Shown here: positions 20,249 through 39,123 of the stretch, piece after piece
How the letters are laid out: each line of letters starts with the position of its first letter
How positions within the stretch are numbered: position 1 is the first letter of the stretch
From: Vicinamibacterales bacterium
Lineage (GTDB): Bacteria; Acidobacteriota; Vicinamibacteria; Vicinamibacterales; SCN-69-37
DNA length: 64,000 nucleotides
Direction: 5' to 3'
NCBI GenBank assembly: GCA_040902895.1
Contig: JBBDWL010000056.1
Coordinates: 16,482 to 80,481 of the forward strand
Position numbers and translations under genes: made by a program
Notes under the pieces: model-generated
What the model saw: the letters and a program-made list of their open reading frames with translations, nothing else
Database searches by the model: none
What the model was told of the DNA's origin: nothing

Positions 20249-21112
20249 ATGCGCCGGGCTCTTGCCGCGTTTGTCGCAATACTCCTCCTGGCCGGTGCGC
20301 CTGATGCCAGGGGCACGGGGCTCGATGCCCTTGTCGATGCCGCCGCCGCGTACGTGCGCGACTATCAGCAGCAGCTGACCGCCATCATCGCCGACGAAAC
20401 CTACACGCAGCAGCTGCGCGCACAGACGCCTCTCGACAAGGGGATGGCGCGCACCAGGACGCTCATCAGCGAGATCTTCTTCATGTTCACGCCCGGCCAC
20501 GACTGGATGGCCATCCGCGATGTGATGTCCATGGACGGGCGGCCGGTTTCCGACCGGCCGGATTTGCGGTCGGCCCTGCAGTCGCTGGCGGCGCACGACG
20601 TGGCGCGCCGCTTCAAGGCGTACAACTCGCGCTATAACCTCGGACGGATCGTCCGGAACTTCAACGAACCGACACTCAGCCTGCTCGTGCTCGACGATGC
20701 GCATCGGTCGCGATTCCGGTTCGAGCGGAGCCGGACGCAGCGTCAAGGCGGCGAGGAGCTCGTGACGCTGTCATTTCGCGAGACCAGGGGGCCGACGCTC
20801 GTCCGGCAGCTGAATGGCGGACCGGCATACGCGAGGGGCGAGGTGACGATTGAACCGTCGACGGGACGGGTGACACGTGCCGTACTCGCGCTGGTGATCG
20901 ATCCGGTCAAGCTCACGCTGACGACGACCTATGCGCCGGATGCGCGGCTGGGGATCTGGGTCCCCGCGAGATTCGGCGAATGGTACGAGCACGGCCGCGC
21001 GCCGCGCAAGGACGCGCGCACGTTGCCGTCGGGCGACGCGCACGAGGAAATCGTCTGCGAAGCGAAGTACAGCAACTTCCGGCGCTTCGAAGTGAAGGCG
21101 AGCATCCGATGA
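20249..21112 (+). CDS. hypothetical secreted protein (first gene of the VWA operon)
   Basis: ATG at 20249 gives MRRALAAFVAILLLAGAPDARG (signal peptide). Its stop overlaps the next gene's start (ATGA). Confidence 0.55.
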   Translation: MRRALAAFVAILLLAGAPDARGTGLDALVDAAAAYVRDYQQQLTAIIADETYTQQLRAQTPLDKGMARTRTLISEIFFMFTPGHDWMAIRDVMSMDGRPVSDRPDLRSALQSLAAHDVARRFKAYNSRYNLGRIVRNFNEPTLSLLVLDDAHRSRFRFERSRTQRQGGEELVTLSFRETRGPTLVRQLNGGPAYARGEVTIEPSTGRVTRAVLALVIDPVKLTLTTTYAPDARLGIWVPARFGEWYEHGRAPRKDARTLPSGDAHEEIVCEAKYSNFRRFEVKASIR

Positions 21113-23148
21113 TCAAGATCCTGCTGCTGGGCGCCGTCCTCGTCGCGCAAGCACTGCCGGCGCAGCAGCCAACGTTCCGCGCGCGCGTCGATCAGGTGCT
21201 GGTCGACGTCGTCGTGACCGACAGGAACGACCGGCCCATAACGGATCTCTCTGCGGCCGACTTCGAGATTGTCGAGAACGGCCGCGTTCAGAAGATTACC
21301 GATTTTCAGTTCGTGTCAGTCCCTGTGTCGACGACGCCGCTCGAAGCCAGCACGCGCGAGGCACGCGCGGCTGCTCCGCTGCCGGATGTCGCGACCAACC
21401 GGCCGCCGGCATCCAACAGCCGGCTGTTCGTGCTGATCATCGACGACCTGCACATCATCGAGTCGGAGATCATCCCGGTCAAGCGCATCATCACCGATTT
21501 CCTGACGGCGCTCGCGCCGGACGACGAAGTCGGCGTGGTGTTCACGGGGCGATCGGATCTCGGCATCAACATCACGCGCGATCGCGCGCGCCTGCTCGCG
21601 GCGCTCGATCGGGTGCGAGACGCGATGGGCTTCGGGCTCGATGCGCTGCACCGGCTCCCTGGCGCCGGCGATCCGGTGATCGACGAGAAGCGCAAGCTGA
21701 AGTACAACGTCCCGGCTCAGTACCTTGGCGCGGCGATGCTCACGCTGATGAACGTCGCCGATGCCCTGGCGGACTCTCCGCATCCGCGACGTGCCATCGT
21801 CTTTGTCAGCGCCGGCTCGGCGCTCGATATGAGACCAAGTCTGAACTCCCCCGAGTACCAGGAGGCGATGGCGCTCCGCAATCGCATGACATCAGCCTAC
21901 GAGTACGCCCGGCGAGCGAATGTTCCGATCTATACGCTTGACCCGCGCGGCGGCCATACCATGCCCGAGGACGCCGTGCGCGGCGGTCTGGGGACGATAG
22001 GCGGCCTGACCGACGAGGTGCCGCTTGGCGGCAGAGCGGCGGTCGCCAAGGCTCGCCCCCACGAGCTCACTCGCGCACAAATCGCGCACAACATTCGGAT
22101 CCAGCAGCACAACCTGTCCGAGATCGCCATCAACACCGGCGGCCGTGCGTTCATCAATCAATCGAATCTGTCGCGTGCGGTGAACGAGATCGTTGCCGAG
22201 AACGGCAGCTATTACCTGCTGGGCTATTCACCCGAGCCGCTGACTCGCGACGGCAAGTTCCACGAGATCGACATCCGCGTGAAACGCGAGGGCGTTCGCG
22301 TACGCGGGCGCGACGGCTACGTCGCGCCGGCGGCGGCGCCAGGGTCAACGGACCCGGTCGAAGAGCTCAACACCGCCATGACGTCGGCCATCAACGTGAC
22401 AGGCATCGGGCTTCGGGGTGTTGCCACGCCACTCGGACCGGGTCCCAAAGGGACGTTAACGGCCGTCACGCTGCAGGTGACCTACCCCATGCTGCCAGGC
22501 AGCACGGCGCCGATCGACGACGTGCTGCGCGTGCATCTCACGGGACTCGATCCGGATGCGAAAGTCAAAGCCACCGCGGAGCACGCGTTCGCGTTCAAGG
22601 CGCAGCCGATGGATGCCGACCACGTGACGTTCCTGATCAACGGACTCATCGACCTTCCGCCGCAGCCGCTGACACTGCGGCTTGGACTGTCGAGCCGCGC
22701 GCTGGGGCGCGTCGGCATGGTGCAGCTCCCGATTCACCCGCCGAGAATTTCCGACTCGGCGCTGCACATGAGCGGCATCGCGATCGCCCTCGAAGGCCGC
22801 GCCGAACCGGCACTTGGCGGCGATCTGATTCGCAGTCTGGTGCCGTTTCAGCCGACGACTGCGCGCGCGTTTACGGCAGCCGATACGCTGCGCATCTTCG
22901 CGCGGACGTTCTGGGGATCGAAGGATGACAGCGTGCAGGTTACGTTCGGTGTGAGCGGGCCGAAAGACATCGCGCCACTGCCGATTTCGCTGGCGGCCGC
23001 GGCCGAGGGCAATCGCCGGCAGGCGACCTTCGAAACAACACTGCCGCTCGGCGGCCTGCCGCCGGGTGACTACGTGCTTCACGTCGAGGCGCGGCTGCCG
23101 AACAAGCAGACGGCGCGCCGCGACGTGCCGTTTCAGATAACACGATGA
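21109..23148 (+). CDS. VWA-domain protein, acidobacterial VWFA-related (TIGR03436-like), paralog 1
   Basis: MIKILLLGAVLVAQALPAQQPTFRARVDQVLVDVVVTDRNDRPITDLSAADFEIVENGRVQKITDF is the hallmark N-terminus. It also has a VWA-like core and a C-terminal GDYVLHVEARL Ig-like end. Confidence 0.85.
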   Translation: MIKILLLGAVLVAQALPAQQPTFRARVDQVLVDVVVTDRNDRPITDLSAADFEIVENGRVQKITDFQFVSVPVSTTPLEASTREARAAAPLPDVATNRPPASNSRLFVLIIDDLHIIESEIIPVKRIITDFLTALAPDDEVGVVFTGRSDLGINITRDRARLLAALDRVRDAMGFGLDALHRLPGAGDPVIDEKRKLKYNVPAQYLGAAMLTLMNVADALADSPHPRRAIVFVSAGSALDMRPSLNSPEYQEAMALRNRMTSAYEYARRANVPIYTLDPRGGHTMPEDAVRGGLGTIGGLTDEVPLGGRAAVAKARPHELTRAQIAHNIRIQQHNLSEIAINTGGRAFINQSNLSRAVNEIVAENGSYYLLGYSPEPLTRDGKFHEIDIRVKREGVRVRGRDGYVAPAAAPGSTDPVEELNTAMTSAINVTGIGLRGVATPLGPGPKGTLTAVTLQVTYPMLPGSTAPIDDVLRVHLTGLDPDAKVKATAEHAFAFKAQPMDADHVTFLINGLIDLPPQPLTLRLGLSSRALGRVGMVQLPIHPPRISDSALHMSGIAIALEGRAEPALGGDLIRSLVPFQPTTARAFTAADTLRIFARTFWGSKDDSVQVTFGVSGPKDIAPLPISLAAAAEGNRRQATFETTLPLGGLPPGDYVLHVEARLPNKQTARRDVPFQITR

Positions 23149-25154
23149 TGAGCAGGCTCGTGGCTGCGGTCTGGCTCCTGGCGACCACCGCCGCTGTCCA
23201 GCAGCCGACGTTCCGCGCGCGCGTCGACCACGTGCTCGTCGACGTCGTCGTCACCGATCGCAACGATCGGCCCGTCACGGATCTGACTGCCGCCGACTTC
23301 GAGATTGTCGAGAGCGGGCGGCGGCAGAAGATCACAGACTTTCAGTTCGTCTCGATTCCGGTGTCGCGCACGCCGCTCGAGGCCGACACCCGCGCCGCGC
23401 GCGCCGCAGTGGTGGTGCCTGACGTCGCGACGAACGCGCTGCCGGCGGCAGCGAGCCGGCTGTTCGTGCTCGTCATCGACGATTTGCACATCATCGAGTC
23501 GGAGATCGTTCCGGTAAAGAAGATCGTCACGGACTTCGTGACGTCGCTTGCGCCCGACGACGAAGTCGGCGTGGTCTTCACGGGACGATCCGATCTCGGC
23601 ATCAACCTCACGCGCGATCGCGGCCGCCTGCTCGCAGCGATCGATCGCATTCGCGAAGCGATGGGGTTCGGACTCGACGCGCTCCACCGGCTGCCGGGAG
23701 GCGGCGGCGATCCGGAGATCGATCAGCTGCGGAAGCTGAACAGAATTCCGATCAACTACGCGAAGTCGACGGCTCGTACGGTGCAGAACGTTGCCTCGGC
23801 TCTCGCCGGCTCGCCGCATCCCCGCCGCGCGATCGTGTTCGTGAGCGGCGGCGTCGCGATCGATCCGAATGCCTCGCTCAACGCCGAGGAGTTCCAGTGG
23901 TGGAGGGCCGTGCGTCAGGACCTGCTCGACACCTTCGGCAAGGCCCGCCAGGCCAGTGTTCCAATCTACACGCTCGACCCGCGCGGTCATACGATGCCGG
24001 AGGATGCCGTGCGGGGAGGCATCGGCACGATCGGCGGCCTGGGGCCGGGCTCGCGAAGCGACGCGGGCCCGAAGATGCGTGCGGAGATCGCACGCCGCAT
24101 CCGAATCCAGCAGAACTACCTCTCGGAGATGGCCATCAATACGGGCGGACGCGCGTTCATCAATCAGTCGAATCTGTCCAAGGCCGTCAGCGAGATCGTC
24201 GCGGAGAACGGAAGCTACTACCTGCTGGCCTACTCACCCACGCCGCTGGCCCGCGATGGGAAGTTTCACGACATCGAGGTAAAGGTCAGGCGTGACGGCG
24301 TCCGGGTACGGGGTCGTGATGGCTATCTGGCGCCATCGGCGGAAGCGGTGTCGACCGATCCGGTCGAAAGACTCAACGCCGCGATGACGTCGGCGATCAA
24401 CGTCAGCGGCATCGCCCTGCGCGCCGTCGCCACGCCGCTCGCGCAGGGCGAGAAAGGCATGCTGACGGCGGTGACGCTGCAGGTCACCTATCCCCTCGCG
24501 CCTGGCAGCACGGCGGCGATCGACGACGTGCTGCGTGTGCACATTTCGGGCCTCGATCCAGAGGCGAAGGTCAAGGCATCGTCGGAACATGCCTTTACGT
24601 TCAAGGCACAGCCGATCAACGCGGACCACGTGACCTTTCTCGTCAATGGCCTGATCGAACTGCCCGCCCAGCCGCTGACCCTGCGGATGGCGATTGCCAG
24701 CCGATCGCTCGGACGCGCCGGCATGGTGCAGCTGCCGATTGAGGCGCCGAAGCGCGATGAATCGCGGCTGCAGATGACCGGCATCGCGATCGGCCTCGAG
24801 GGCAGCGGCGAGCCTGCACTTGGCGGCGATGTGATTCGCGCGCTCGTGCCGTTTCAGCCGACGACGACCCGCGCGTTCGCGGCGGCCGACACACTGCGCA
24901 TCTTCACGCGCCTGTTCTGGGAGTCGAACGCGAGCCACCAGGCCGACCTCACGTTCGGTGTGAGGGGCCCATCAGCCATCCCGTCTCGTACGCTTCCGCT
25001 CTCTGCAATCGCCGACGGCAATCGGCGACAGGCGGCGTTCGAAACCACCCTGTCGCTGCAGAAGCTGGTGCCTGGGGATTACGTGCTACACGTCGAAGCG
25101 CGGCTGCCTGATGGTCAGACGGCGCGCCGCGACGTGCCGTTCAGGGTGCGATAG
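23145..25154 (+). CDS. VWA-domain protein (TIGR03436-like), paralog 2, tandem duplicate of paralog 1
   Basis: QQPTFRARVDHVLVDVVVTDRNDRPVTDLTAADFEIVESGRRQKITDF. It is collinear with and very similar to the preceding gene, with an ATGA overlap. Confidence 0.85.
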   Translation: MMSRLVAAVWLLATTAAVQQPTFRARVDHVLVDVVVTDRNDRPVTDLTAADFEIVESGRRQKITDFQFVSIPVSRTPLEADTRAARAAVVVPDVATNALPAAASRLFVLVIDDLHIIESEIVPVKKIVTDFVTSLAPDDEVGVVFTGRSDLGINLTRDRGRLLAAIDRIREAMGFGLDALHRLPGGGGDPEIDQLRKLNRIPINYAKSTARTVQNVASALAGSPHPRRAIVFVSGGVAIDPNASLNAEEFQWWRAVRQDLLDTFGKARQASVPIYTLDPRGHTMPEDAVRGGIGTIGGLGPGSRSDAGPKMRAEIARRIRIQQNYLSEMAINTGGRAFINQSNLSKAVSEIVAENGSYYLLAYSPTPLARDGKFHDIEVKVRRDGVRVRGRDGYLAPSAEAVSTDPVERLNAAMTSAINVSGIALRAVATPLAQGEKGMLTAVTLQVTYPLAPGSTAAIDDVLRVHISGLDPEAKVKASSEHAFTFKAQPINADHVTFLVNGLIELPAQPLTLRMAIASRSLGRAGMVQLPIEAPKRDESRLQMTGIAIGLEGSGEPALGGDVIRALVPFQPTTTRAFAAADTLRIFTRLFWESNASHQADLTFGVRGPSAIPSRTLPLSAIADGNRRQAAFETTLSLQKLVPGDYVLHVEARLPDGQTARRDVPFRVR

Positions 25155-25199
25155 CGCAGGCCCTCAGGCCTGCGTTCCACGCAGGGCTAAAGCCCTGCG
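25155..25199. terminator. two adjacent GC-rich hairpins between convergent genes
   Basis: CGCAGGCC-ctca-GGCCTGCG (25155-25174) and CGCAGGGC-taaa-GCCCTGCG (25180-25199). There is no T-tract. Confidence 0.45.
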
Positions 25200-26432
25200 C
25201 TACCGCCAGATTGCTTCCTGCGGCGGCAGCGTGGTCGCGAGATAGCCCTTGCGCGCGCGCACGGTCACGCCGTTTGCTTTGGCCTTCACTTCGATCTTGC
25301 GGAACTTGCCGTCCATCGTGGGATTCGACGGCTGATAGCCGATGACGTAGTAGGTACTCGTGTCGCGCGCGATGCGGCTGAACGCGGCCTTCATGTCGTC
25401 GGTGCCCTGCACCATGAAGCCGCCCGTGCCTGCCGTCAGGATGTTCGGTCCATCGTCACCCGAATCGAAGGTGAGTGAGCGTCCGGGATCGGCGCGCACG
25501 GCGTCGGTGTTGCCGGCCGAGCGATTGATCAGGCCGCGGCCGTCGATGGAATAGATCGTGACGCCGGCGCGCGCCGCCTGGCCGGCGAGCTTCTCGAGCG
25601 TCGCCCGCGCTTCGATCGAATAGAACCCCTCCGACATCAGCACGATCGTCTTGCGGCCGGCGTACTTGCCAAGGCTGGCGACGAGCGCCTGAATGCTCTG
25701 AACGGTCTGAGCGGTCAGAATCCGCGCCTGCCGCACGTACAGGCGCGCCTTGACCTGAATCTTGTTCTCCACATACTGAATGGCCCCGGGCATGTTGCAG
25801 TCCGGCTCCCACGGCGAGTCCTGGCAGGCTTTCACGCCGAGCCTGTTCGTCAGCTCGCGCGCGCCGTCGGCGACGCGCATGGCGTCGTGCTCGCTGGGAA
25901 TACGCGGAAACTCGCGGAACGGCGCGAGCAGCGACTCGCGTGTGTCGATCAACGGCTTGGCGGCGCGCACGCCCGAGAGCAGCGCGCCCTTGTCGGTCGT
26001 GAGCCGCGACTGGTGCAGCTCGCCGTTCACGAGCACGCCGCTGACGTCGCCCGGTCCGATGTGCTCCATGATGAACGACTCGGCGCCCTTCTTGACGCGC
26101 ATCAGGCCTTCCGCGCCGAGATGCCCGCTGTCGAACATCATCACGAACACACGATGCGCCCCCTCGGCCGGCCTGCCGGCCTCGTCGGCGGCGATCGACG
26201 ATGCGCGGGCCACCGGATCGTGAGTGACCAGATAGAACTGCTCGATCTTCTGGACCTGGCCGTTCTCGTAGAGCGTCAGGTCGTCCGGGCCGAGGCTCGG
26301 TACGAAATTGCCATTGTCATCGAGCACGATCGCGTCGACCTGCACGAGCGCGGTCGTCGTGCGGAAGGTCGGCTGCTGGGGGGCGGCCTGAAGAAGGACG
26401 CCACAAACGACGAGCCAGGTGATGCGAGCCAT
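25200..26432 (-). CDS. VWA-domain protein (TIGR03436-like), shorter paralog 3
   Basis: 410 aa. QQPTFRTTTALVQVDAIVLDDNGNFVPSLGPDDLTLYENGQVQKIEQF, followed by a VWA-like core. Confidence 0.8.
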   Translation of the reverse strand: MARITWLVVCGVLLQAAPQQPTFRTTTALVQVDAIVLDDNGNFVPSLGPDDLTLYENGQVQKIEQFYLVTHDPVARASSIAADEAGRPAEGAHRVFVMMFDSGHLGAEGLMRVKKGAESFIMEHIGPGDVSGVLVNGELHQSRLTTDKGALLSGVRAAKPLIDTRESLLAPFREFPRIPSEHDAMRVADGARELTNRLGVKACQDSPWEPDCNMPGAIQYVENKIQVKARLYVRQARILTAQTVQSIQALVASLGKYAGRKTIVLMSEGFYSIEARATLEKLAGQAARAGVTIYSIDGRGLINRSAGNTDAVRADPGRSLTFDSGDDGPNILTAGTGGFMVQGTDDMKAAFSRIARDTSTYYVIGYQPSNPTMDGKFRKIEVKAKANGVTVRARKGYLATTLPPQEAIWR

Positions 26433-26476
26433 CGAACGATTCCTTTCAGGGGCCGGAAGATGTCAGTATACAGGCG

Positions 26477-28342
26477 ATGAAGGCACTCGTCGCGGCCCGC
26501 GCGATCGCCGCCGTTGGGGTGGTGGTGTGGGCAGCCGGCGCAACGCCTTTACCGGGCCGGCAGCAGAGTCCTCCGCAGTTCCGGGCGCGTACCGACCTCG
26601 TCCAGGTCGACGTCGTCGTCCTTGATGCCGACGGCCGGCCGGTGCGCGGCCTGCAGGCGTCGGACTTCACGATTCTCGACCGCCGCAGGCCGCAGCCGAT
26701 CCAGACCTTCACGGAAATCAGCCACGCAGAGCCGGACAGCGCGGCCGGCCCGCGACCGCCCGCGGACGTGCGGCTCGACGTCGCCGACAACACCACGGCG
26801 AAGTCGCAGCGGGCGATCGTGCTGGTAATTCAGAACATGAACCTCCGCGAGAGCCGCGTGGCGCAGGTGAAGGAGGTCGCGGCGCGAGTCGTACGCGACC
26901 TTGGGCCGAGCGCGTCGATGGCATTGCTGTTCACGAGCGGCCATGGGAGTGTCGAGCTGACCGAGGACCGCGCGACACTGCTCGATGCGGTGGATGGATT
27001 CGGAAACGTGGGCGCGCTCGGTCTGGAGGCTTTCCTTCGCCTGCTGAAGAGCGTGCAGGACGCTGCGCGCCATCTGCAGGGCGACAACACGCGGCGGAAG
27101 GCGATCATCGTCATCGCCCCAGGCATGGGCGCGAACATCACCGGGCTCTACCAGGTCATGCGGCCGCGGCCGACCGGGAACCCGATCTATGACAAGAGCG
27201 GGACGCAGGAGCGGAGCGACATCGCGTTCCTGACGATGATGGATGCGTTGAGGCGTTCGAACGTCACGCTCTATGGCGTTGACCCGCGAACGCCAGTGCA
27301 GAACCTCGAAGAGCGCGCGCACGAAGGGCGTGATCAACCTGCTCTGCGGATGTTCGACGAGCATGAGCGACGGAAAGACTCCCTTGAGCTCTCGGCCGAA
27401 GCGTCAGGCGGGTTTGCCGTCATGGGCTCCCGCGGCCTCGACGCCGGCCTCAATCGCATCGTCGCGGATCTCGACAACTACTACCTGCTCGGCTTTTACG
27501 CGGAAGACCCGGACAGTGACAAGTGGCGCGACCTCGAGGTCACCGTCAACAGACCCGGCGTGATCGTGCGGCATCGCAAGGGCTATCGCGGTGGCGCGAA
27601 GCCGCCCAAACCGAAGAACAAGGATCCGATGGTGCAGCTGTCGGAAGGCGTCCTGCCACAGACGGACCTTCGGCTGCGCCTGTTCGCCACATCGGTGTCG
27701 CTGTCGCCGAAGTTGGCGAAAGTCGCGGTGTCGCTGGAGGCGCGCGATCCGGCGCTGACGGCGGCCGGATCGACGGGTGATCGCGTGACCGCCACGATTC
27801 TGGCGGTCGATCTGAAGCGCAGGAAGGTCGTGAAGCGTGTCGACCGGCGCGCCGACGTCGCACTCGGAGCCGACGAGGCCTATCAGTTTCCGTTCACGAT
27901 GGATCTGCCGCCAGGCCGATACCAGTTGCGCGCCTCGGCGGCGAGCGCTGCATCAGGCAAGTCAGGCAGCGTCTATCTCATGCTCGACGTTCCGGCGCAG
28001 CCGAGAGAGGGGATCGCGATCGCCGGCGCGTCACTGAGCCCGTCCGGGGACGGTGAGGCTGTTCTGCACGATCGAGCGTTCGGACCGGGCGACGTGCTGC
28101 ATGTCAGCTACTGGATCGCGCGCGCCGATCGCGCCGCAGCCGTCGCGTCGACGGTCGAGATTCTCGACAGTGGCGGCGCCGTGGTGTTCAACGCGGCACC
28201 GCACGTGCCGGACGGCGCAACCGCGCGCGTTCGGGCCGACGTCGCGTTGAAATCGCTCCCGCCGGGAAGCTATCGGCTGCGCATCATCGCGCGCAGCGGC
28301 GTCAGCGAAGCGGCGCGGGAGATTGGATTCGCGATCAGGTAG
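26477..28342 (+). CDS. VWA-domain protein (TIGR03436-like), paralog 4
   Basis: PPQFRARTDLVQVDVVVLDADGRPVRGLQASDFTILDRRRPQPIQTF. C-terminal PPGSYRLRIIARS. Confidence 0.8.
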   Translation: MKALVAARAIAAVGVVVWAAGATPLPGRQQSPPQFRARTDLVQVDVVVLDADGRPVRGLQASDFTILDRRRPQPIQTFTEISHAEPDSAAGPRPPADVRLDVADNTTAKSQRAIVLVIQNMNLRESRVAQVKEVAARVVRDLGPSASMALLFTSGHGSVELTEDRATLLDAVDGFGNVGALGLEAFLRLLKSVQDAARHLQGDNTRRKAIIVIAPGMGANITGLYQVMRPRPTGNPIYDKSGTQERSDIAFLTMMDALRRSNVTLYGVDPRTPVQNLEERAHEGRDQPALRMFDEHERRKDSLELSAEASGGFAVMGSRGLDAGLNRIVADLDNYYLLGFYAEDPDSDKWRDLEVTVNRPGVIVRHRKGYRGGAKPPKPKNKDPMVQLSEGVLPQTDLRLRLFATSVSLSPKLAKVAVSLEARDPALTAAGSTGDRVTATILAVDLKRRKVVKRVDRRADVALGADEAYQFPFTMDLPPGRYQLRASAASAASGKSGSVYLMLDVPAQPREGIAIAGASLSPSGDGEAVLHDRAFGPGDVLHVSYWIARADRAAAVASTVEILDSGGAVVFNAAPHVPDGATARVRADVALKSLPPGSYRLRIIARSGVSEAAREIGFAIR

Positions 28343-28390
28343 GCCGTGACGCTGGCAGGACTAGCTTTGGGATAATCGATTGGCACCCTA

Positions 28391-30772: not shown

Positions 30773-30810
30773 TAAGCTTACTCAGCCGGCGCATAATCGA
30801 GGCAAACCAC

Positions 30811-32997
30811 ATGACCAACGGCTCGATCGCCGTCCGGCGGCCCGTCGCCTTCACCGCGGCGGTGCTATGCCTGTCGCTGGCGGCTGACGCCCAGCAGCGC
30901 GCTCCTCTACAGTCTCAGCCCACGTTCCGCGCCGACGTCGAGCTCGTGCAGATCGACGTCGTCGTCGTCGACCAGAACGGCGCGCACGTCCGCGGCCTGA
31001 AGGCGAGCGACTTCGTCGTTCGCGATCGCGGGAAGCCGCAGACGGTTGCGGCGTTCGAGGAGATTTCGCATGAGCGGCCTGCGCGGACGATGGCCGATGC
31101 CGCCGCGCCGCCGCCGCCGCCACCGGCGCGACTCGACGTATCCAGTAATCAGACCGCGGCCGCCGATCGGCTGGTCGTGCTCGTCGTCGACGATCTGCAT
31201 CTCTGGCGGGGCCGCACGGCGACGGCGCAGTCGATCGCGCGCGGCATTCTCGACAGGCTTGGCCCCGACGCGTCCATGGCGGTGCTCTTCACCAGCGGCG
31301 AGCGAAGCACGCAGGTCACCGAGGACCGCGCACTTCTGCGCAACGCCATTGACACGCTCAAGGGACGGCAATCGGTGCGGCGGCCGAATCAGGCTGTCGA
31401 TGGCCAGCGCACGAAGCCGAACGATCCCGAAGCCAGCATGGACGCGCAGCTTGCGAACATTCAAGCGTCGCAGGACGTCAGCCTGCAGCAATTCGCCGAC
31501 AACATGAGCCTGTTTACGACGCTCGAGGAGGCCGCGCGCATGATGGGCCAAGGGGATGCGCGGCGGAAGGCCTTCGTGCTCGTCTCGGAAGGCATCTCGA
31601 AGAATCCCACCGGCATCTTCGGATCGATGCGCGAGACGCCACAGGCGCCCGCGGGGGGAGCGGCGTACGCCGCGACGGGTGACGCGGCAGCGACCATCGT
31701 GCCGCCACCGACGGCATACCACGACCTCGCGCTGATCGACATGATGGAGGCCATGCGGCGATCGAACGTCGCAACGTATGCGATCGACCCGCGAGGGGAA
31801 GTCACGTCCGAGGAGCGCGCGCTCGAGCTTCACCCGGAGCCTGTCAGCGGTGATCCTATCTTCCGCTGGAACGACCCGCTCCGCATTGCACAGGACGGCC
31901 TGACGACAATCGCGGAGGCATCGGGGGGCTTCGCCGTGGTCAACACCGACGACTTCGCGAGCGGAGTCGAACGCATCCTCGACGATCTCGATCACTACTA
32001 TCTGCTTGGCTTTTATCCGGCTGACCCGAAGCGGAAGGGATATCGGCGGCTCGACGTAAACGTGCCCGGGCACCCGGATTGGATCGTGCGATTCCGCAGC
32101 GGCTATCAGGTCGAAGGCGGGCAAACGAAGGAGACGAAGAACCAGACTCCGCTCGTCGCGCTCTCGGCAGGCGTGCTGCCGAAGACCGACCTCGATCTGC
32201 GTGTTGGCGCCGTGCCGCTGGCGCTCGAGAGCGCGCGCGAGACGCGCGTCGCGGTCACGCTCGAAGTGTCGGTGGACCGCTCGTCACTCGAAGATCCTGA
32301 CGGCAAGCTGCGCGACGAGCTGACGTACGAGATTCTCGCCGTCGATGAGAAGCACAAGACGGTCAAGCACGCGGGCGGACTGAAGGCGCGTGTGACGCTG
32401 TCGCCAAGCGGCGCCGGCCCGCCCGTGGTCGCAACGTATCAGGTCGCCGACACGATCTCTCTGCCGCCCGGCGCGTACCAGCTGCGCGTGGCCGCGCAGA
32501 GCATCCGGCTGAAAAAGGGCGGCAGCGTGTATCTGAATCTGGACGTGCCCGACTTCAGGCGCGCGCCCGTCACGATCGGCGGAATGGCCATCGGCTACGC
32601 GGCCGGCGCGCGCGTCACCGAAGCGCCGCCGATCGCCCGGCCGACGCCCGCTCAGCGTTCCGCGCGCATGGTCATCGCGCCGCCAGTGCCCGCACTGCCG
32701 TTCCCCGCAACGCTGGACCGCGCGTTCACAACGGATGATGTGTTGCGGGTCTATCTCGAGGTCGCGGGGGGAGGTGGACGCGCCGAGCGAATTCCGGGCC
32801 GTCTCGAAGTGCTCGCAGCCGATGGAAAGACCCCGCAGTCCTCGGTCGATTTCACGTCGGACGACCGCGGCCGCGTCAACCTCACGCTGCCGCTCGGCAA
32901 CCTCGACCCCGGCCCGTACATCCTCCGCGCCACGGTGGGGACCGGCTCCCAGGCTGTGACGCGCGACGTCGGCTTCTCGATCGCCGATGCGCGCTAG
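30811..32997 (+). CDS. VWA-domain protein (TIGR03436-like), paralog 5
   Basis: Internal ATG at 30811 (MTNGSIAVRRPVAFTAAVLCLSLAADA). QPTFRADVELVQIDVVVVDQNGAHVRGLKASDFVVRDRGKPQTVAAF. Confidence 0.85.
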   Translation: MTNGSIAVRRPVAFTAAVLCLSLAADAQQRAPLQSQPTFRADVELVQIDVVVVDQNGAHVRGLKASDFVVRDRGKPQTVAAFEEISHERPARTMADAAAPPPPPPARLDVSSNQTAAADRLVVLVVDDLHLWRGRTATAQSIARGILDRLGPDASMAVLFTSGERSTQVTEDRALLRNAIDTLKGRQSVRRPNQAVDGQRTKPNDPEASMDAQLANIQASQDVSLQQFADNMSLFTTLEEAARMMGQGDARRKAFVLVSEGISKNPTGIFGSMRETPQAPAGGAAYAATGDAAATIVPPPTAYHDLALIDMMEAMRRSNVATYAIDPRGEVTSEERALELHPEPVSGDPIFRWNDPLRIAQDGLTTIAEASGGFAVVNTDDFASGVERILDDLDHYYLLGFYPADPKRKGYRRLDVNVPGHPDWIVRFRSGYQVEGGQTKETKNQTPLVALSAGVLPKTDLDLRVGAVPLALESARETRVAVTLEVSVDRSSLEDPDGKLRDELTYEILAVDEKHKTVKHAGGLKARVTLSPSGAGPPVVATYQVADTISLPPGAYQLRVAAQSIRLKKGGSVYLNLDVPDFRRAPVTIGGMAIGYAAGARVTEAPPIARPTPAQRSARMVIAPPVPALPFPATLDRAFTTDDVLRVYLEVAGGGGRAERIPGRLEVLAADGKTPQSSVDFTSDDRGRVNLTLPLGNLDPGPYILRATVGTGSQAVTRDVGFSIADAR

Positions 32998-35086
32998 TCT
33001 TCGTCCCCGCGCGCGTCAATCCGCAGCCGTCGCGGCGGCCATGCTCGGGCTGTCTTTCTCGCTCGGCGCTCAGCAGAGCACGCCCTCACGCCCGCAGACT
33101 ACGTTCCGCGCCGGCGTCGAGCTCGTTCAGGTCGACGTCGTCGTCGTCGACCAGAAAGGCACGCACATTCGCGGGTTGAAGGCGAGCGACTTCGCCATCA
33201 CCGACCGCAAGAAGCCGCAGACGATCGCGGCGTTCGAGGAAGTGACGCACGAACGGCCGCGTGCCGCCGAGGCGTCGCCGGCGAGTGCGGCGCCGGTGCG
33301 GATGGACGTCGCGAGCAACCAGAGCGTGCAGGCGCATCGCCTGGTCGTGATGGTGATCGACGATCTGCACATCTATCGAGGGCGCGTTGATAGGGCAAAG
33401 ACGATCGCGAAGGACGTGCTTGCGAAGCTCGGGGGCGACGCCTCGATGGCCGTTCTCTTCACCAGCGGCGAGCACAGCACGGAGGTGACGGAAGATCGAT
33501 CGATGCTGCTGGCAGCGATCGACACGCTTCAAGGGCGAAAGGCGGTACGCCGGCCAACCGCCGCCATCGATCGGCAGAAGATGGCCGCGGGCGGCGGGGA
33601 AACCGGGCGGCCGTTTGAGGAAATCGCCGACGCCCAAAGCGCATCACTGCAGGACTTCTTCGACAACATGTCGAAATACAAAGCGCTCGACGACGCCGCG
33701 CGGTTGCTCGGTCAGGGTGATGCAAGGCGAAAGGCGTTCGTCCTCATCTCAGAAGGCATCGCGAGGGATCTGACAGGCGTGTTCGATGCGGCGAATGCGG
33801 AGGGCCATCACGCCCTGGCGCTGCGCAACATGATGAACTCGATGCGGCGATCCAACGTCGTCACGTACGGCATCGATCCGAGGGGACACGTCTCGACTCA
33901 GAACCTGGCGCTCGAATTGTTCCCGAGTCCGCAAGGCTTCGACGTGCACGATCCGGTGTTTTTCTGGCACAACCCGGTTCGTCTGGCGCAGAACGGCTTG
34001 AGGGGCCTGGCTGAAGCGTCGGGCGGCTTTGCCGTGGTCGACACCGACGACTTCACGGCCGGCATCGATCGCATCATCGACGACCTCGATCATTACTACC
34101 TCCTCGGGTTCTACCCGAACGATCCCGGCAAGAAGGGCTATCGGCCGCTCGACGTCAGCATCTCCGCGCATCCTGAATGGCAAGTCCGCTTCCGCAAGGG
34201 TTATCGCGCGGAAGGGCCTCCGAAGCCGCCCGTCAACAAGAACCCGCTGGCCGCGCTCATGTCTGGCGCGCTGCCCGACTCGTCGCTGCCCCTGCGCCTT
34301 CATGCGGTGCCGCTTGGGCAGGCGTCCGGAGGCGACACGCGGATTGAGCTGGCGATCGAAGTCTCGGTGCCGCGGACGGCCGTGGAGGAAGCAGACGGCA
34401 AGCTGCGCGACGAGTTGAAGTACGAGGTCGTGGTCGTCGACGAGAAAAGAGCAAAGATTCGGTCGCTCGGCGGCCTGACGGCGCGTGTGACGTTGTCACC
34501 GACGGCCGGCCGCGACACGGCGCCCGACGTCGCGACCTATCAGGTGGCGCAGACGATCGCGCTACCGCCGGGACGGTTCCAGCTGCGCCTCGCCGCGCAA
34601 AGCAGCAAGCTCGCCCGGGGCGGCAGTGTGTATCTGCACCTGAACGTGCCCGACGTAAGGCGCGATGCGCTGTCGATTGGCGGACTCGCGGTAGGTTACG
34701 CGAACGGATCGCGGATCGCGACAGCCGTGGCGACTCCCCCGCCGGTGAGTCGCGCGCGGCGCTCGGCGCGCATGGCCGCGGCTCCTCCGCCGCTCCCCGC
34801 GCTGCCGTTCCCGCCGACGCTGGATCGCGAATTCGCGAGCGACGATCTGCTGCGCGTGTACTTCGAGGTCACGGCGCGCGATCGGCGCGAACCGGCTGCC
34901 GGGGTATTGGAGATCGTGGGAGCCGATGCCGGCGCGGCACACCGCTCGCTGCCCTTCACGGTCGACGACCGCGGCCGCGCCGATTTTCAGGTGTCACTCG
35001 CCGGCCTGCCGCCCGGCGCCTACATCCTGCGCGCCCAACTTACGGCCGGCCCGAAGGCGGAGATCGGGATCGCGATCAAAAAATAG
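32987..35086 (+). CDS. VWA-domain protein (TIGR03436-like), paralog 6
   Basis: QTTFRAGVELVQVDVVVVDQKGTHIRGLKASDFAITDRKKPQTIAAF. It is collinear with paralog 5 and overlaps it by 11 nt. Confidence 0.85.
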   Translation: MRASLRPRARQSAAVAAAMLGLSFSLGAQQSTPSRPQTTFRAGVELVQVDVVVVDQKGTHIRGLKASDFAITDRKKPQTIAAFEEVTHERPRAAEASPASAAPVRMDVASNQSVQAHRLVVMVIDDLHIYRGRVDRAKTIAKDVLAKLGGDASMAVLFTSGEHSTEVTEDRSMLLAAIDTLQGRKAVRRPTAAIDRQKMAAGGGETGRPFEEIADAQSASLQDFFDNMSKYKALDDAARLLGQGDARRKAFVLISEGIARDLTGVFDAANAEGHHALALRNMMNSMRRSNVVTYGIDPRGHVSTQNLALELFPSPQGFDVHDPVFFWHNPVRLAQNGLRGLAEASGGFAVVDTDDFTAGIDRIIDDLDHYYLLGFYPNDPGKKGYRPLDVSISAHPEWQVRFRKGYRAEGPPKPPVNKNPLAALMSGALPDSSLPLRLHAVPLGQASGGDTRIELAIEVSVPRTAVEEADGKLRDELKYEVVVVDEKRAKIRSLGGLTARVTLSPTAGRDTAPDVATYQVAQTIALPPGRFQLRLAAQSSKLARGGSVYLHLNVPDVRRDALSIGGLAVGYANGSRIATAVATPPPVSRARRSARMAAAPPPLPALPFPPTLDREFASDDLLRVYFEVTARDRREPAAGVLEIVGADAGAAHRSLPFTVDDRGRADFQVSLAGLPPGAYILRAQLTAGPKAEIGIAIKK

Positions 35087-35140
35087 GGGACGGGTCTCGA
35101 TTTTACGGTTTCTGTAAAATCGAGACCCGTCCCCTATTTT
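35080..35140. repeat. long perfect palindrome (27-bp stem, 7-nt loop), copy 1 of a repeated element; likely bidirectional terminator
   Basis: AAATAGGGGACGGGTCTCGATTTTAC-ggtttct-GTAAAATCGAGACCCGTCCCCTATTT. It contains the stop codons of both convergent genes (TAG at 35084-86 and CTA at 35134-36). Confidence 0.85.
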
Positions 35141-37326
35141 GTTAAGTACGCCGCGATCTGTTCGCGCTCGCGCGCGAAGAACGCGAGCGGCGCGGTGTCG
35201 ATGAACTGGCGGCCGTAATGTCTGGCTTCTTCGCGGCGGCCGGCCGACGCGAGCTCCAGCCACAGGTTATAGAGCGCGTTGAACTCGGCGCCGTCGAGCG
35301 CGACCGCGCGCTTCCAGCTCTCGATCGCCTCGCCCTTGCGGCCGGTGCCTGACAGAATCACGCCCATGATCGTGTGCGCACCGGCCAACGTCGCATCGGC
35401 CTCGAGCGCTTTCCGCGCGTAGCCCTCCGCCTGCTGCATCTTCGCGATCGCCGCATCCGCGTTGCCGAGCGCCAGTGCCTCGCGCAGCGTCATCGACGCG
35501 AGATTCTGAAATGCCAGCGCGTTGGTGGCATCGAGTGCCAGCACGCGATCGAACGTGCGCACGGCGTCGCCGTACCGTCCCGCCGCGCCATACGCGATTC
35601 CCAGACCGTTCAGGGCCTCGACATCATCGGTCGGCATCCCTTCGAGGAGCGCAATGGCGCGCGCAGGGTCGCCACCGCTCTCCGCCAGATACACGCCAAG
35701 GCGCACACGAAGATCGCGATCGGGCGCGCCGGCGCGCAGGCCCTGCTCGAGCGTGGCGATCGCCTTCTGCGGCTGCCCGCCTTCCCAGTACTGATACGAC
35801 AACGTGATGTAGGCGTCGGCCGTGTCGGGACGCCGCGCGATCGCGCCCTCGAGCAGCCGGATGCCCTCGTCGCGCCGCCCTTCCTGAAACGCCTCTGACG
35901 CGCGGTGCAGATCGCGATCGACCTCGACGAGCCGCTTCGGATCGTCGTCCTCGGTATAGCGATCGCGCGCCGGTGCGCTGCCCGTGACATAGCCAAGCGA
36001 ACGCAAGGCTTCGCGCGCTTCCGCCGATTCCTGTCCCGGCCGGTTCGGCGGCGCCACGTTGAAGCCGCGCAGCATGTTCGCCATCACCTGCACGCGGTCG
36101 CGCGCGCTTGCCGCCAGATTGGTGTGCTCGCCGGGATCGGCCGCCAGATCGTAGAGCTCCGGAATCGGCAGATCGATGTACTTGCTGCGTTCGACGATGA
36201 CGCCGCGCAGCGGCGCCCAGCCGCGCACGAGGTTGTAGGTCATGGCCTCGAAGTACGCAGGCCGGTCGGCGCTCTGGCCGTCGCCGACGAGCGGCGCGAG
36301 CGATACGCCCGGCAGCGCCGCCGCGCCCTCGACGCTCGCGAGGTCCAGCACGGTCGGCGCGATGTCAATGTGCCGCACGGGCGTGTCGACGACGACGCCC
36401 CTCGACTTCGCTCGGGGCAAGCCCGCGGTGCCGTTCGAGCCTGCCCCACGGCCCCCTGGCTCGACCACCGCGACGATCAGCGGCACGCGCAGCGTCGGCT
36501 CGTACGCGAACATTGCGTGCGTCAGCTCGCCATGCTCGCCGAGGCTCTCGCCGTGATCCGACGTCACGATCACAAGCGTGGGGCGCGACAATGTCGCCAG
36601 CCTGTCGAACAGCGGGCCGAGTGCCTGATCGGTCCACGCGACTTCGCCGTGGTACGGCTGCGCCGGGTAACCCGCCAGGTGTGGCTCCGGCGGCTTGTAC
36701 GGCGAATGCGGATCGAAAACGTGCACCCACGAGAAGAACTTCTGCTGCTGTGCGCCGATCCACTGGACCGCCCGCGCGACGACCTGGTCCGCCGGACGCT
36801 CCGGCATCGAGATCGCAATCGCGCCCCTCAGCTCCGGCATCTCATCGTCGTACACGTCGAATCCGGGCGCGAGGCCGAAGCGCTTCGTCACCGGAAACCC
36901 GCCGACGAACGCGCCGGTCGCGAACCCCGCCGCCTTCAGCCACGTCGCGAGCGTCTCGGTCCCGTCCTTCACGCGGAAGCCGCTGTTGTCGCGCATGCCA
37001 TGCTCATACGGCAGGCGTCCGGTAAGGATGCTGGTGTGCGACGGCAGCGTCACCACGGCGTGCGCGTGCGCGAACGAGAAGCGCGCGCCGCCGGCGGCGA
37101 GCCGATCGAGATTCGGCGTGCGCGCCGGTCCGCCGTACGACGACAGCGCATCTGCCCGTAGCGTGTCGATGGTGACGATGAGGATGTTGCGATCGGGCCG
37201 CGGCTCGAGCACGAACGGGCTCGAGCGCGGCCACCAGAGGACCAGCGCGCCCGCGAGGCCGAGCGCCGCCACCGCGGCGGCGGCCCAGGCCGGCGCGCGG
37301 CCGCGCGACGCGCGGCGAGGGATCAT
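35134..37326 (-). CDS. sulfatase-like (alkaline-phosphatase superfamily) enzyme fused to C-terminal TPR repeats, paralog 2
   Basis: ILIVTIDTLRADALSSYGG...AHAVVTLPSHTSILTGRLPYEHG...VTSDHGESLGEHG plus C-terminal TPR repeats. It is collinear with 28664..30772. Confidence 0.85.
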   Translation of the reverse strand: MIPRRASRGRAPAWAAAAVAALGLAGALVLWWPRSSPFVLEPRPDRNILIVTIDTLRADALSSYGGPARTPNLDRLAAGGARFSFAHAHAVVTLPSHTSILTGRLPYEHGMRDNSGFRVKDGTETLATWLKAAGFATGAFVGGFPVTKRFGLAPGFDVYDDEMPELRGAIAISMPERPADQVVARAVQWIGAQQQKFFSWVHVFDPHSPYKPPEPHLAGYPAQPYHGEVAWTDQALGPLFDRLATLSRPTLVIVTSDHGESLGEHGELTHAMFAYEPTLRVPLIVAVVEPGGRGAGSNGTAGLPRAKSRGVVVDTPVRHIDIAPTVLDLASVEGAAALPGVSLAPLVGDGQSADRPAYFEAMTYNLVRGWAPLRGVIVERSKYIDLPIPELYDLAADPGEHTNLAASARDRVQVMANMLRGFNVAPPNRPGQESAEAREALRSLGYVTGSAPARDRYTEDDDPKRLVEVDRDLHRASEAFQEGRRDEGIRLLEGAIARRPDTADAYITLSYQYWEGGQPQKAIATLEQGLRAGAPDRDLRVRLGVYLAESGGDPARAIALLEGMPTDDVEALNGLGIAYGAAGRYGDAVRTFDRVLALDATNALAFQNLASMTLREALALGNADAAIAKMQQAEGYARKALEADATLAGAHTIMGVILSGTGRKGEAIESWKRAVALDGAEFNALYNLWLELASAGRREEARHYGRQFIDTAPLAFFAREREQIAAYLTK

Positions 37327-38201
37327 TGCGGGGCGGCGATGCCCGCGAGGACCTTCACGCCATCGCGGCGCGCGCCCACCTGCACGATCTGCGGCGTGCC
37401 CGACGGACGCGCATAGGTGACCTCATACTGATGCGCCAGCGAAGAGGCGTAGTCTCGCATCAGCACCTCGACCGCATTGTCTGTGAAGACGACCTCACGC
37501 CGTCCGCCGCCAACCTGCACGAAACGATTGAGCACAATGTCACGTGCCGGATTCTCGAGTGATCCCTTCTGCACCGAGACGGCCCAGACCTGCGAGCGCG
37601 ACGCGATCAACGAGGTCAGAACCCGCTGGGGCTGCTGACTGCTGACTTCTTTGCTCGGCTCGACGTTGACAATGACGATCGCGCGCCGCGGGGTCTTCTG
37701 CCTCGCGAGGGCCCGGGTGGTCGCGTCAAGCGCCTCGAGCAGCACCGAAGCCGCGCGCTGTTTCGGATAGACCCGTGCGGTTGCTTTCAGGAACTCCTGA
37801 TGGTCGCTCGTGAAGTCCTTGATCTCGACCGCGGCCTGCCCGAACTCCCATAGAGCCATCTGCGACTGCGGACTTTCCTTCGCGATGGTCTCGACGAAGG
37901 CTTTCAGGCCGGCGCGGATGTCCTGGATGAATACCTGCGCTTCGGTCGTCGTGTCGATCAGCAGCACGATGGCGAGCGGCTGCTCCGACTTCTTCACCGA
38001 CACGATCTCGCGATCGATGTTGTCTTCCCGGATCGCGAAGTCGGCGGCGGTCATGTCGGTCACCGGCTTGCCTTTGTCGTCGATCACCGAGACGAAGATC
38101 GTTTTCTGGGCGGCCTGCGTGCCCACGGCCACGGCGCCGAGCGACACGATCAGGGCGAGACACGACAGGGGAACGAGCCGGCGGTGCGCGCGCGCAGTCA
38201 T
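37323..38201 (-). CDS. short VWA-like secreted protein (TIGR03436-like N-terminal architecture)
   Basis: A signal peptide is followed by IFVSVIDDKGKPVTDMTAADFAIREDNIDREIVSV and LAIVLLIDTTTE...PRRAIVIV. The stop overlaps the start of the sulfatase-like gene. Confidence 0.65.
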   Translation of the reverse strand: MTARAHRRLVPLSCLALIVSLGAVAVGTQAAQKTIFVSVIDDKGKPVTDMTAADFAIREDNIDREIVSVKKSEQPLAIVLLIDTTTEAQVFIQDIRAGLKAFVETIAKESPQSQMALWEFGQAAVEIKDFTSDHQEFLKATARVYPKQRAASVLLEALDATTRALARQKTPRRAIVIVNVEPSKEVSSQQPQRVLTSLIASRSQVWAVSVQKGSLENPARDIVLNRFVQVGGGRREVVFTDNAVEVLMRDYASSLAHQYEVTYARPSGTPQIVQVGARRDGVKVLAGIAAPQ

Positions 38202-38241
38202 AACAGGACCTCCTGGGGCAGTATACCTTCGCGGGCCGCGG

Positions 38242-39123
38242 TCACCGGATCATCGGCGACAGGCGCACCCGGTTGCCGCAGCGGCAGTCCATGGTGACGG
38301 GCGCGACCGGCTGACTCGAGGGCCGCGCGAAGGTCACGACATATTGCGAGGCGAGGCTCGCGGCCACCTGCGTCAGAAGGGTTTCGAGGCCGGCGGCTTC
38401 CGCCGCGAATACGCGAAGTCCCCCGCTCGATTTCGTCACGGCATCGAGCACCGAGTCGCGGCGCCTGGCGGACTGTCCAGGACCGCGCACCGAGATGGCC
38501 CAGTACGTGGCGCCCGACGCGCTCACGGCCTTCGCCGCGCGCGTCATCATCGCCTCATCGCCGCCTTCAACGGAGTGCAGATCCACCGACACGATCGCGC
38601 GCCGGGGCATCGGCCTCGCGCGAAGTCTCGTTGACGCGTCGTCCAGGGCCTCCAGCAGCTTGGCATCCGACGGCAGATTCGGATAGATGCGCGCGACGGC
38701 GAAATCCAGTTTCTCTGCCGGGACATCGAAATCGGCGACGGTCACGGGCGCGCCTCCGAACTCGGTGAGTGAGAGTGCCGTCCCGGGGGCATGAGCGCGG
38801 ATGGCCACGACAAACGCGGCAAACGAGGTGCGGATGTCGCGCACCGGCGCCTGCGATCCCATTGGCGGCTTCACGGTGTCGACCAGCATCGCAACGGAGA
38901 GCGGTTCGTCCGACAACGACGCGTCGATCACCTCGCGCGTCGCACTGCCCTCGCGCACGACGAAATCGGCGGCCGTCAGGCCAGCTACCGGCGCACCGGG
39001 GTTGGCTAACACGGTCACCAGCACGGTCAGGCGGTTCGGATGCTGGATGTCAGAGAAAGAGCGAGCCTCGGGCGCCAGTGACAAAAGCACTGCAGCAAGG
39101 GCCGCTGCGATGAGAGCGCGCAT
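38242..39123 (-). CDS. short VWA-like secreted protein, paralog of 37323..38201
   Basis: LTVLVTVLANPGAPVAGLTAADFVVREGSATREVIDA, LSVAMLVDTV...PRRAIVSV. Same length and layout as the neighbouring gene. Confidence 0.65.
   Translation of the reverse strand: MRALIAAALAAVLLSLAPEARSFSDIQHPNRLTVLVTVLANPGAPVAGLTAADFVVREGSATREVIDASLSDEPLSVAMLVDTVKPPMGSQAPVRDIRTSFAAFVVAIRAHAPGTALSLTEFGGAPVTVADFDVPAEKLDFAVARIYPNLPSDAKLLEALDDASTRLRARPMPRRAIVSVDLHSVEGGDEAMMTRAAKAVSASGATYWAISVRGPGQSARRRDSVLDAVTKSSGGLRVFAAEAAGLETLLTQVAASLASQYVVTFARPSSQPVAPVTMDCRCGNRVRLSPMIR

Follow-up and report, generated by a model that had tools for sequence, protein, structure and literature searches.

The 64,000-nucleotide stretch analysed here (hereafter the window) comes from a Vicinamibacterales bacterium (assembly GCA_040902895.1, contig JBBDWL010000056.1, positions 16,482 to 80,481) and has a G+C content of approximately 65%. 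Within its 20.2–39.1 kb interval lies a cluster of 11 genes, which encode six von Willebrand factor type A (VWA) proteins of the family TIGR03436 (V1–V6), two short VWA-like proteins (v7 and v8), two enzymes that join a sulfatase-fold domain to a TPR arm (S-TPR; S1 and S2), and g0, the product of a separate family. All eight VWA-like open reading frames (ORFs) of the window are located inside this 19-kb cluster, and the other 45 kb contain none. The cluster is a real, conserved module of extracytoplasmic genes in the Vicinamibacterales (Acidobacteriota). An initial annotation had placed the genes correctly and recognised the three recurring types, but had counted 12 genes with 11 of them in these types, where we find 11 and ten, respectively. 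The features of the cluster are:

20182..20210, + strand: hairpin, terminator-like, 13-pair stem then T-run, just 5' of g0, at the left edge of the cluster
20231-21112, + strand: g0, 293 aa, secreted, family without Pfam or NCBIfam model
21106-23148, + strand: V1, 680 aa, TIGR03436 186.7 bits, signal peptide
23145-25154, + strand: V2, 669 aa, TIGR03436 187.5 bits, tandem paralogue of V1
25200-26432, - strand: V3, 410 aa, TIGR03436 190.6 bits, short form without the C-terminal beta-sandwich domains
26477-28342, + strand: V4, 621 aa, TIGR03436 177.4 bits, divergent from V3 and convergent with S1
28664-30772, - strand: S1, 702 aa, PF00884 (1.7e-38), PF01663 (2.3e-15), TPR families, N-terminal hydrophobic anchor
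30811-32997, + strand: V5, 728 aa, TIGR03436 159 bits, first of the V5-V6 pair reading toward S2
32987-35086, + strand: V6, 699 aa, TIGR03436 173.3 bits, tandem paralogue of V5
35087..35133, both strands: hairpin resembling a bidirectional intrinsic terminator, perfect 20-pair stem with T-runs on both strands, occupying the entire 47-bp V6/S2 gap
35134-37326, - strand: S2, 730 aa, PF00884 (8e-42), PF01663 (6e-15), TPR, last of the v8-v7-S2 unit
37323-38201, - strand: v7, 292 aa, short secreted VWA-like protein, VWA_2 30.9 bits (cut-off 27), TIGR03436 68.5 bits (below cut-off)
38242-39123, - strand: v8, 293 aa, short secreted VWA-like protein, TIGR03436 40.2 bits (below cut-off)

Four junctions overlap, in agreement with the start/stop overlaps noted initially: g0/V1 by 7 bp (the g0 stop codon lies over the V1 start), V1/V2 by 4 bp, V5/V6 by 11 bp, and S2/v7 by 4 bp (the v7 stop codon lies over the S2 start). 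The start codons of the divergent pairs V3|V4 (26432/26477) and S1|V5 (30772/30811) are only 44 and 38 bp apart, so that the promoters at these two sites must overlap one another or the adjoining coding sequence. Sites resembling the sigma-70 consensus were no more frequent in the cluster than in shuffled sequence and absent from the V3|V4 and S1|V5 intergenic gaps, and Rfam and tRNA scans of the cluster returned nothing regulatory. VWA pairs had been described as reading toward a TPR enzyme twice; this is correct for V5–V6, which face S2, but the first such module consists of V4 alone facing S1. Amino acid identities between paralogues are 68% for V1/V2, 53% for V5/V6, approximately 35% between V4 and V5/V6, approximately 27% between V3 and the rest, and 37% for v7/v8; S1 and S2, at 56% identity, are anciently diverged paralogues.

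Every protein of the cluster starts with a signal peptide or signal anchor, as read from the translations. This agrees with the envelope or secreted location suggested initially, and the long VWA proteins are predicted to have an adhesin- or matrix-like architecture. V1–V6 are all members of TIGR03436 (acidobact_VWFA), scoring 159–190.6 bits against the curated NCBIfam cut-off of 81.25 bits and covering at least model positions 1–321 of 324. The short proteins v7 (68.5 bits) and v8 (40.2 bits) stay below this cut-off and are relatives rather than members; v7 passes the Pfam family VWA_2. The N-terminal F-R block that the initial annotation had assigned to all six long VWA proteins occurs in its strict form in three of the six, with V1 and V2 differing at one position and V4 carrying PPQFR. 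At the other end, the proposed Ig-like segment G-x-Y-x-L-x-(V/A/I) is found in all five long proteins, within the last of two predicted beta-sandwich domains; these domains were modelled for V4 alone, with which the other long VWA proteins (V1, V5, V6, etc.) align over their full length.

AlphaFold2 models of V3 and V4 have the VWA fold, matching structures of BatA/BatB, the CD11b I-domain, CMG2, ITIH1, and integrin. In the V3 model (mean predicted local distance difference test score, pLDDT, 82), the VWA domain, into which a long helical segment is inserted, stands between N-terminal and closing beta strands, and the best Foldseek matches in the PDB are 4jdu (a Bacteroides aerotolerance-related protein), BatB (3ibs), integrin I-domains, and CMG2. 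The V4 model (pLDDT 87) comprises N-terminal beta strands, a VWA domain, and two C-terminal beta-sandwich domains (residues 399-505 and 513-620), and its matches include transglutaminase/FXIII C-terminal barrels, the Vibrio biofilm scaffold RbmA, integrin, and ITIH1. Residues R485, S490, G497, V499, P506, R533, and F535 of the first V4 C-terminal beta-sandwich (residues 477-535) are invariant in 62 sequences, and such conservation suggests that this domain may offer a binding surface rather than act as a spacer.

The VWA domains of the cluster subfamilies have lost the D-x-S-x-S motif of the metal-ion-dependent adhesion site (MIDAS). At this position, 44 V3-type sequences, like V3 itself, have D-E/S-G-H-L, and 62 long-type sequences have D-D-L-H-I, as seen in V1; both serines are gone and a conserved histidine occupies position 4. 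A canonical DxSGS MIDAS is present in short TIGR03436-type VWA proteins encoded immediately ahead of a sortase gene in two loci of the census described below (L082, 18708-20202, and L085, 19261-20729), both from a Gram-negative lineage; neither of these VWA proteins has an LPXTG-type C-terminal signal.

S1 and S2 share one architecture, with a single N-terminal hydrophobic anchor, a sulfatase-fold domain, and a C-terminal TPR arm of approximately 250 aa. Both match the sulfatase family PF00884 (133 bits for S1, 144 bits for S2) and combine it with a sulfatase-like C-terminal subdomain (SGSH_C, 24.5 bits in S1, below the 29.3-bit cut-off, and 45 bits in S2). Their best full-length matches are sulfatases, including choline-, GlcNAc-6-, and GalNAc-6-sulfatase structures, which is the one point that would speak for genuine type I sulfatases desulfating sulfated glycans or matrix polymers. 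The active site tells otherwise. The formylglycine motif C/S-x-P-x-R is replaced by T-L-P-S-H; in alignments with solved sulfatases, T90 of S1 takes the place of the formylglycine Cys/Ser and H94 that of the Arg. Among the 167 family ORFs across all fetched loci the Thr nucleophile and the His at +4 are each present in 159 of 160. D51, T52, T90, H94, H203, D253, and H254 are invariant in ten aligned S proteins. No sulfatase equivalog of NCBIfam comes near its cut-off (123 vs. 433 bits and similar), and no gene for an anaerobic sulfatase maturase or FGE was found among the window genes scanned. A desulfating function is thus essentially excluded and the candidate was rejected for want of the formylglycine motif, and the initial term "sulfatase-like" does not hold in the catalytic sense.

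The active site instead resembles that of nucleotide pyrophosphatases/phosphodiesterases. The 27-residue nucleophile loop of S1, VVTLPSHASILSGRYPYEHGIRDNTGY, matches ENPP1 and ENPP3 residue for residue ahead of every sulfatase and follows the NPP/ENPP pattern T-F/L-P-N/S-H ... G-x-Y-P-x-x-H-G-I-x-D-N, and a longer N-terminal segment of S1 matches the Xanthomonas NPP (Xac NPP, 2gsn) at 6e-8. The Thr of ENPP enzymes to which T90 aligns is their catalytic residue. Matches to PF01663 are above the cut-off for both enzymes but partial, covering profile positions 1–68 of 342 in S1 and 2–220 of 342 in S2, and neither protein matches an NPP/ENPP catalytic domain over its full length. EptA and MCR models match S1 and S2 weakly (E 1e-5), and the multi-pass N-terminal membrane domain of EptA/PptA/LtaS-type enzymes is absent, as a single hydrophobic segment is followed directly by the catalytic domain. 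Because the nucleophile loop matches ENPP1/3 best and the Thr and His are conserved, S1 and S2 combine a sulfatase scaffold with an NPP-type, Thr-based metal site, and "sulfatase-like" describes their fold only. Judged from the active-site residues alone, phosphoester chemistry would be expected.

The genomic association of the two protein types was followed in three censuses: an S-centred set of 80 genome loci encoding S1/S2 relatives, mostly from Acidobacteriota; a V3-centred set of six orthologues on long contigs; and a long-VWA-centred set of 79 metagenome loci gathered with a V4-type alignment (individual loci are given below as L numbers). A TIGR03436-like ORF is encoded within 10 kb in 19 of the 80 S-centred loci, in seven of them no more than 500 bp from the S match, and it is found in 10 of the 11 loci at least 46% identical to S1. 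The figure of 19 is little limited by sensitivity, as iterating once on the VWA hidden Markov model, first built from window paralogues only, brought in just one more locus; the numbers of direct neighbours are minimum figures, because the gene caller, based on G+C at third codon positions, failed on 13 low-GC loci of this set. An S-TPR gene lies within 10 kb in five of the six V3-centred loci, and we infer that 13 of the V3 orthologues, which are numerous at 55–85% identity, are located on the same contigs as S1 orthologues, the contigs being of equal length. The long-VWA-centred loci contain an S-TPR gene in 13 of 79 cases, and in 12 of these 13 it is within 280 bp of the VWA gene. Assuming uniform placement in the available flanks, the Fisher-combined p-value is approximately 1e-9, and approximately 4e-8 for the six loci with ~13–20 kb of total flank; both values are rough, since the census loci are not phylogenetically independent.

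This adjacency depends on the paralogue. S2 goes with v7/v8 and V5/V6, and S1 goes with V3 (and V4). Orthologues of S1 (61–69% identity) occur in L081–L085, L091, L092, L097, and L101, and those of S2 (55–77% identity) are paired with orthologues of v7 and/or V5/V6. The long VWA proteins encoded next to an S gene are V5/V6 orthologues (43–52% identity) paired with S2 orthologues: V5 and S2 orthologues are direct neighbours in at least 10 metagenome loci, and V6 orthologues are followed by S2 in L097 and L101. Orthologues of v7 are found immediately upstream of S2 orthologues in L083, L084, L097, L098, and L101, v8 orthologues (42–46% identity) in L082, L084, and L097, and a V4 orthologue (48%) adjoins the S1 orthologue of L091. 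The order in L084, v7(55%)>S2(77%)>S1(69%)> <v8(44%) <v8'(40%) V3(62%)> <g0(57%), is that of the window (BLAST against the window proteins); L097 has v7>V6>S2>S1> <v8 V3>, and L092 has <V3 .. <S1 V5> <S2 v7>. The convergent layout of a long VWA gene facing an S gene, pointed out initially for the window, recurs in seven separate metagenome loci. L084 had first suggested that the long VWA genes are insertions into a VWA-free core, a view revised in the light of V5/V6 orthologues paired with S2 in L092, L097, and ten more loci.

The association is real but confined to certain subfamilies and is not a property of TIGR03436 overall. Where at least 2.5 kb of sequence was available on both sides, an adjacent S gene was present for 6 of 11 long VWAs more than 42% identical to V5/V6 vs. 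0 of 15 more distant ones, and three V4 homologues on Mb-scale contigs have housekeeping genes around them and, within 10 kb, no S gene. The initial annotation had expected a fixed and enriched linkage of VWA proteins with the TPR enzymes; recurrence with orthologous partners, in several orientations and in both genomes and metagenomes, bears out the enrichment, but only for these subfamilies, and a TIGR03436-like gene is near in only 19 of the 80 S-TPR loci. In the Thermoanaerobaculia, the pairing recurs in a different arrangement, VWA<VWA<TPR-lipoprotein< | OMP>S>S>, which is entirely co-directional in L050. Long VWA genes, two in most cases, and a TPR lipoprotein gene stand there beside an 'OMP> S> S>' array (L022, L031, L033-L035, and L050), and the lipoprotein has a G-N-C-x-x-F motif in its N-terminal half that is reminiscent of transglutaminase-like proteases.

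Two independently expanded families could also come together by chance or in a duplication hotspot. Both are highly expanded in Acidobacteriota, VWA and TonB-receptor proteins having been listed among the expanded paralogue families of the Solibacter genome (PMC3174227, where no function was assigned to the VWA proteins), and V1/V2 and V5/V6 are recent tandem duplicates. Such an origin is nevertheless disfavoured and very improbable, as orthologous pairs recur in many loci with differing orientations and surrounding genes, the S gene is almost always the immediate neighbour when it is present at all, and the adjacency is confined to particular subfamilies.

The remaining gene, g0, is also part of the conserved gene set. 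Its family comprises 2417 representative clusters (50% identity) at E<=1e-3 and has no Pfam or NCBIfam match. The orthologue in L084 (57% identity) adjoins the V3 orthologue, and in at least four cases (P0404, P0440, P0445, and P0489) a TIGR03436 protein carries a g0 domain as a C-terminal fusion, which is an independent link of g0 to the VWA proteins.

Across Acidobacteriota, the commonest neighbours of S-TPR genes are other S paralogues and a CarboxypepD_reg + OMP_b-brl_4 barrel gene, not a VWA gene. The S-centred loci have one to five called S genes in 67 loci and two or more in 45; a barrel gene is encoded in 46 of the 80 loci and directly adjacent to S in 34, with the barrel preceding S co-directionally in 22 of these 34 at a median gap of 138 bp. 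Tandem S arrays behind a barrel gene ('OMP> S> S> S>') are seen in L013, L015, L020, L022, L025, L027-L036, and others. FG-GAP/ASPIC-UnbV proteins and a second enzyme of the alkaline phosphatase (AP) superfamily (PF01663) are also encoded in S-centred loci. Of the V3-centred loci, five of six contain a barrel gene, four of six a PMT_2 (GT-C) gene with TPR, and two of six the VWA–sortase pair, alongside short VWA and TPR proteins. Of all these kinds of neighbour, the window has just one, a CarboxypepD_reg barrel gene (9721-12762).

This wider context, with its dominant 'OMP> S> S> S>' layout, common tandem arrays, and recurring PF01663 enzyme, would together with the NPP-type active site fit a scavenging role resembling a polysaccharide utilization locus (PUL), in which the S-TPR proteins are periplasmic phosphodiesterases acting on organophosphate polymers imported by SusC-like CarboxypepD_reg barrels and the VWA proteins either serve as accessory binders or just happen to be encoded nearby. 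We regard such a role as unlikely for the cluster. No barrel gene adjoins S1 or S2 in the window, catabolic enzymes of the periplasm do not usually have TPR arms or a membrane anchor, and no regulator or Pho-type signal was identified; moreover, the paralogue-specific pairing with VWA proteins and the g0–VWA fusions would be left unexplained.

The PMT_2 and sortase genes of the V3-centred loci point in another direction, toward a more specific form of the role suggested initially, the assembly or modification of a secreted adhesive or matrix layer. In such a maturation pathway, the VWA/beta-sandwich proteins would be adhesins or matrix proteins that are secreted, and the S-TPR enzymes would be their dedicated modifiers, with the TPR arm recognising the substrate, elsewhere alongside PMT_2(GT-C)-TPR glycosyltransferases and sortase. 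The PMT_2 genes are located on Vicinamibacterales-like contigs (L081, 11333-13216 and 17203-19104; L082, 11307-13262; L083, 14964-16025; L085, 14808-17051), fused to TPR in L081, L082, and L085 and followed by a separate TPR ORF in L083. Precedents exist for both chemistries: EptC and PptA, both of the AP superfamily, attach phospho-forms to proteins, and in eukaryotes the TMTC enzymes combine GT-C and TPR as protein O-mannosyltransferases. The resemblance of V4 to RbmA, ITIH1, integrin, and transglutaminase C-terminal barrels, which belong to matrix and adhesion biology, and the pairing of one enzyme paralogue with one VWA subfamily are in line with such a pathway. Also in its favour is a conserved, Ser/Thr-containing N-terminal peptide, P-T-F-R-S/T-T-T, which is predicted to be disordered (pLDDT <50 for residues 1–22; F23 and T27 invariant). 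Yet the S-TPR enzymes have a single N-terminal anchor in place of the multi-pass membrane domain that binds the lipid donor in EptA/PptA/LtaS-type transferases, the window genes scanned include neither a PMT_2 nor a sortase domain, and even the sortase-adjacent VWA proteins elsewhere lack an LPXTG tail, making maturation an improbable explanation. The idea of sortase-dependent VWA surface proteins likewise found no sortase domain to rest on among the window genes scanned.

The interpretation we favour, with a probability of roughly 50%, is an enzyme-adaptor model of paralogue-specific envelope complexes acting on phosphoesters. TPR arms and VWA/beta-sandwich domains are taken as protein–protein interaction modules, and for this reason the TPR arm of each enzyme is proposed to bind its cognate VWA/beta-sandwich protein or proteins, so that paralogue-specific enzyme-adaptor complexes would form in the periplasm or outer envelope. 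They may hydrolyse or transfer phosphoester groups, rather than sulfate esters, on a macromolecular substrate and probably cooperate with the SusC-like CarboxypepD_reg outer-membrane barrels, a link suggested by the wider family context, in which these barrels are the commonest neighbour of the enzyme family. Whether the S-TPR proteins as a class are TPR-guided Thr-nucleophile enzymes, each acting on or regulated by a dedicated MIDAS-less VWA/beta-sandwich protein, is more doubtful.

Several observations weigh against the enzyme-adaptor model. Many VWA/S pairs are convergent and thus not co-transcribed, and V6 and S2 are split by the bidirectional terminator. The CarboxypepD_reg barrel gene nearest to the cluster (9721-12762) is ~7.5 kb from its edge. 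As a TIGR03436-like gene is missing from the 10-kb surroundings of 61 of the 80 S-TPR loci, the enzyme family does not generally need a VWA partner. The census loci, several of which share identical spacing, are not phylogenetically independent.

The surroundings of the cluster in the window include a DUF2231 + Rieske fusion gene (18072-18989) on one side and a PIN-domain gene (39377-39904) and tRNA-Ser(GGA) (41832-41921) on the other. Three MacB_PCD/FtsX-type permease genes are located in the window (2279-4735, 13036-14169, and 51161-53773), and the same type is also found near the S-TPR/V3 loci L081, L083, and L086. Anti-phage defence was considered for the cluster and rejected, as nine of its proteins matched no PADLOC family at E<=1e-3 and all of its proteins are secreted.

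Acidobacteriota, especially the Vicinamibacterales, rank among the most abundant bacteria of soils, and their largest lineage-specific families, the TIGR03436 VWA proteins, the CarboxypepD_reg barrels, and the 'sulfatase-like' TPR fusions, are without known function. A literature search found no paper naming TIGR03436 and nothing on Acidobacteria combining von Willebrand, sulfatase, and TPR; searches for VWA paralogues in Acidobacteria returned only unrelated Ku work and those for Vicinamibacter sulfatases only community surveys. The cluster offers a first functional handle on the large TIGR03436 family. If the VWA subfamilies are dedicated partners and the enzymes are of the phosphoesterase type, these expansions become a testable hypothesis with defined pairs and a defined chemistry, and the annotation 'sulfatase-like hydrolase/transferase' could be corrected. 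Should each S-TPR enzyme act on, or be regulated by, its own VWA protein, particular TIGR03436 subfamilies and the equally expanded sulfatase-TPR family would have a role, in an undescribed envelope enzyme-adaptor or protein phospho-modification system of soil Acidobacteriota. The findings may also be relevant to how organic phosphorus is turned over in soil, or to the biology of surfaces and matrices there.

Compared with known systems, the cluster shares with TIGR03436 at large the signal peptide, the N-terminal F-R...V-D-V-V-V block, and the VWA fold, with V1–V6 above the cut-off across the full model. It differs from this family, which has no assigned function or partner, in that the V3-, V5/V6-, and v7/v8-type subfamilies have a dedicated S-TPR neighbour and lack the DxSxS MIDAS kept by the sortase-adjacent family member. 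The enzymes are full members of neither family they resemble. With NPP/ENPP (PF01663) they share the Thr nucleophile in T-x-P-x-H, followed by (S/T)-G-x-Y-P-x-x-H-G-I-x-D-N, but the match is limited to the N-terminal part; the remainder of the catalytic domain, with SGSH_C, resembles sulfatases, and an anchor and a TPR arm are added. With type I sulfatases they share the fold, the best full-length matches, the conserved N-terminal Asp, and the D-H-G metal ligands, but have Thr for the formylglycine Cys/Ser and His for the Arg at +4. Loci of SusC-like TonB-dependent transporters (PUL-type) are similar in that many Acidobacteriota loci have a CarboxypepD_reg barrel followed by co-directional AP-superfamily arrays; in contrast to them, no SusD and no glycoside hydrolases were seen, and in the window the barrel gene lies apart from the cluster. 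Among described modules, the Bat (Bacteroides aerotolerance) operon comes closest; it is likewise an envelope module of VWA (BatA/BatB) and TPR (BatB/BatC/BatE) proteins, and the V3 model has the BatA-like 4jdu and BatB 3ibs among its best Foldseek matches. Membership in it was rejected, as neither MoxR ATPase nor DUF58 genes occur in the cluster or among the flanking window genes scanned. Unlike in the Bat operon, the VWA proteins have cleavable signal peptides instead of membrane anchors and lack the MIDAS, and the TPR part is joined to an enzyme of the AP superfamily. The cluster is a variant of the theme of VWA and TPR proteins combined in the bacterial envelope.

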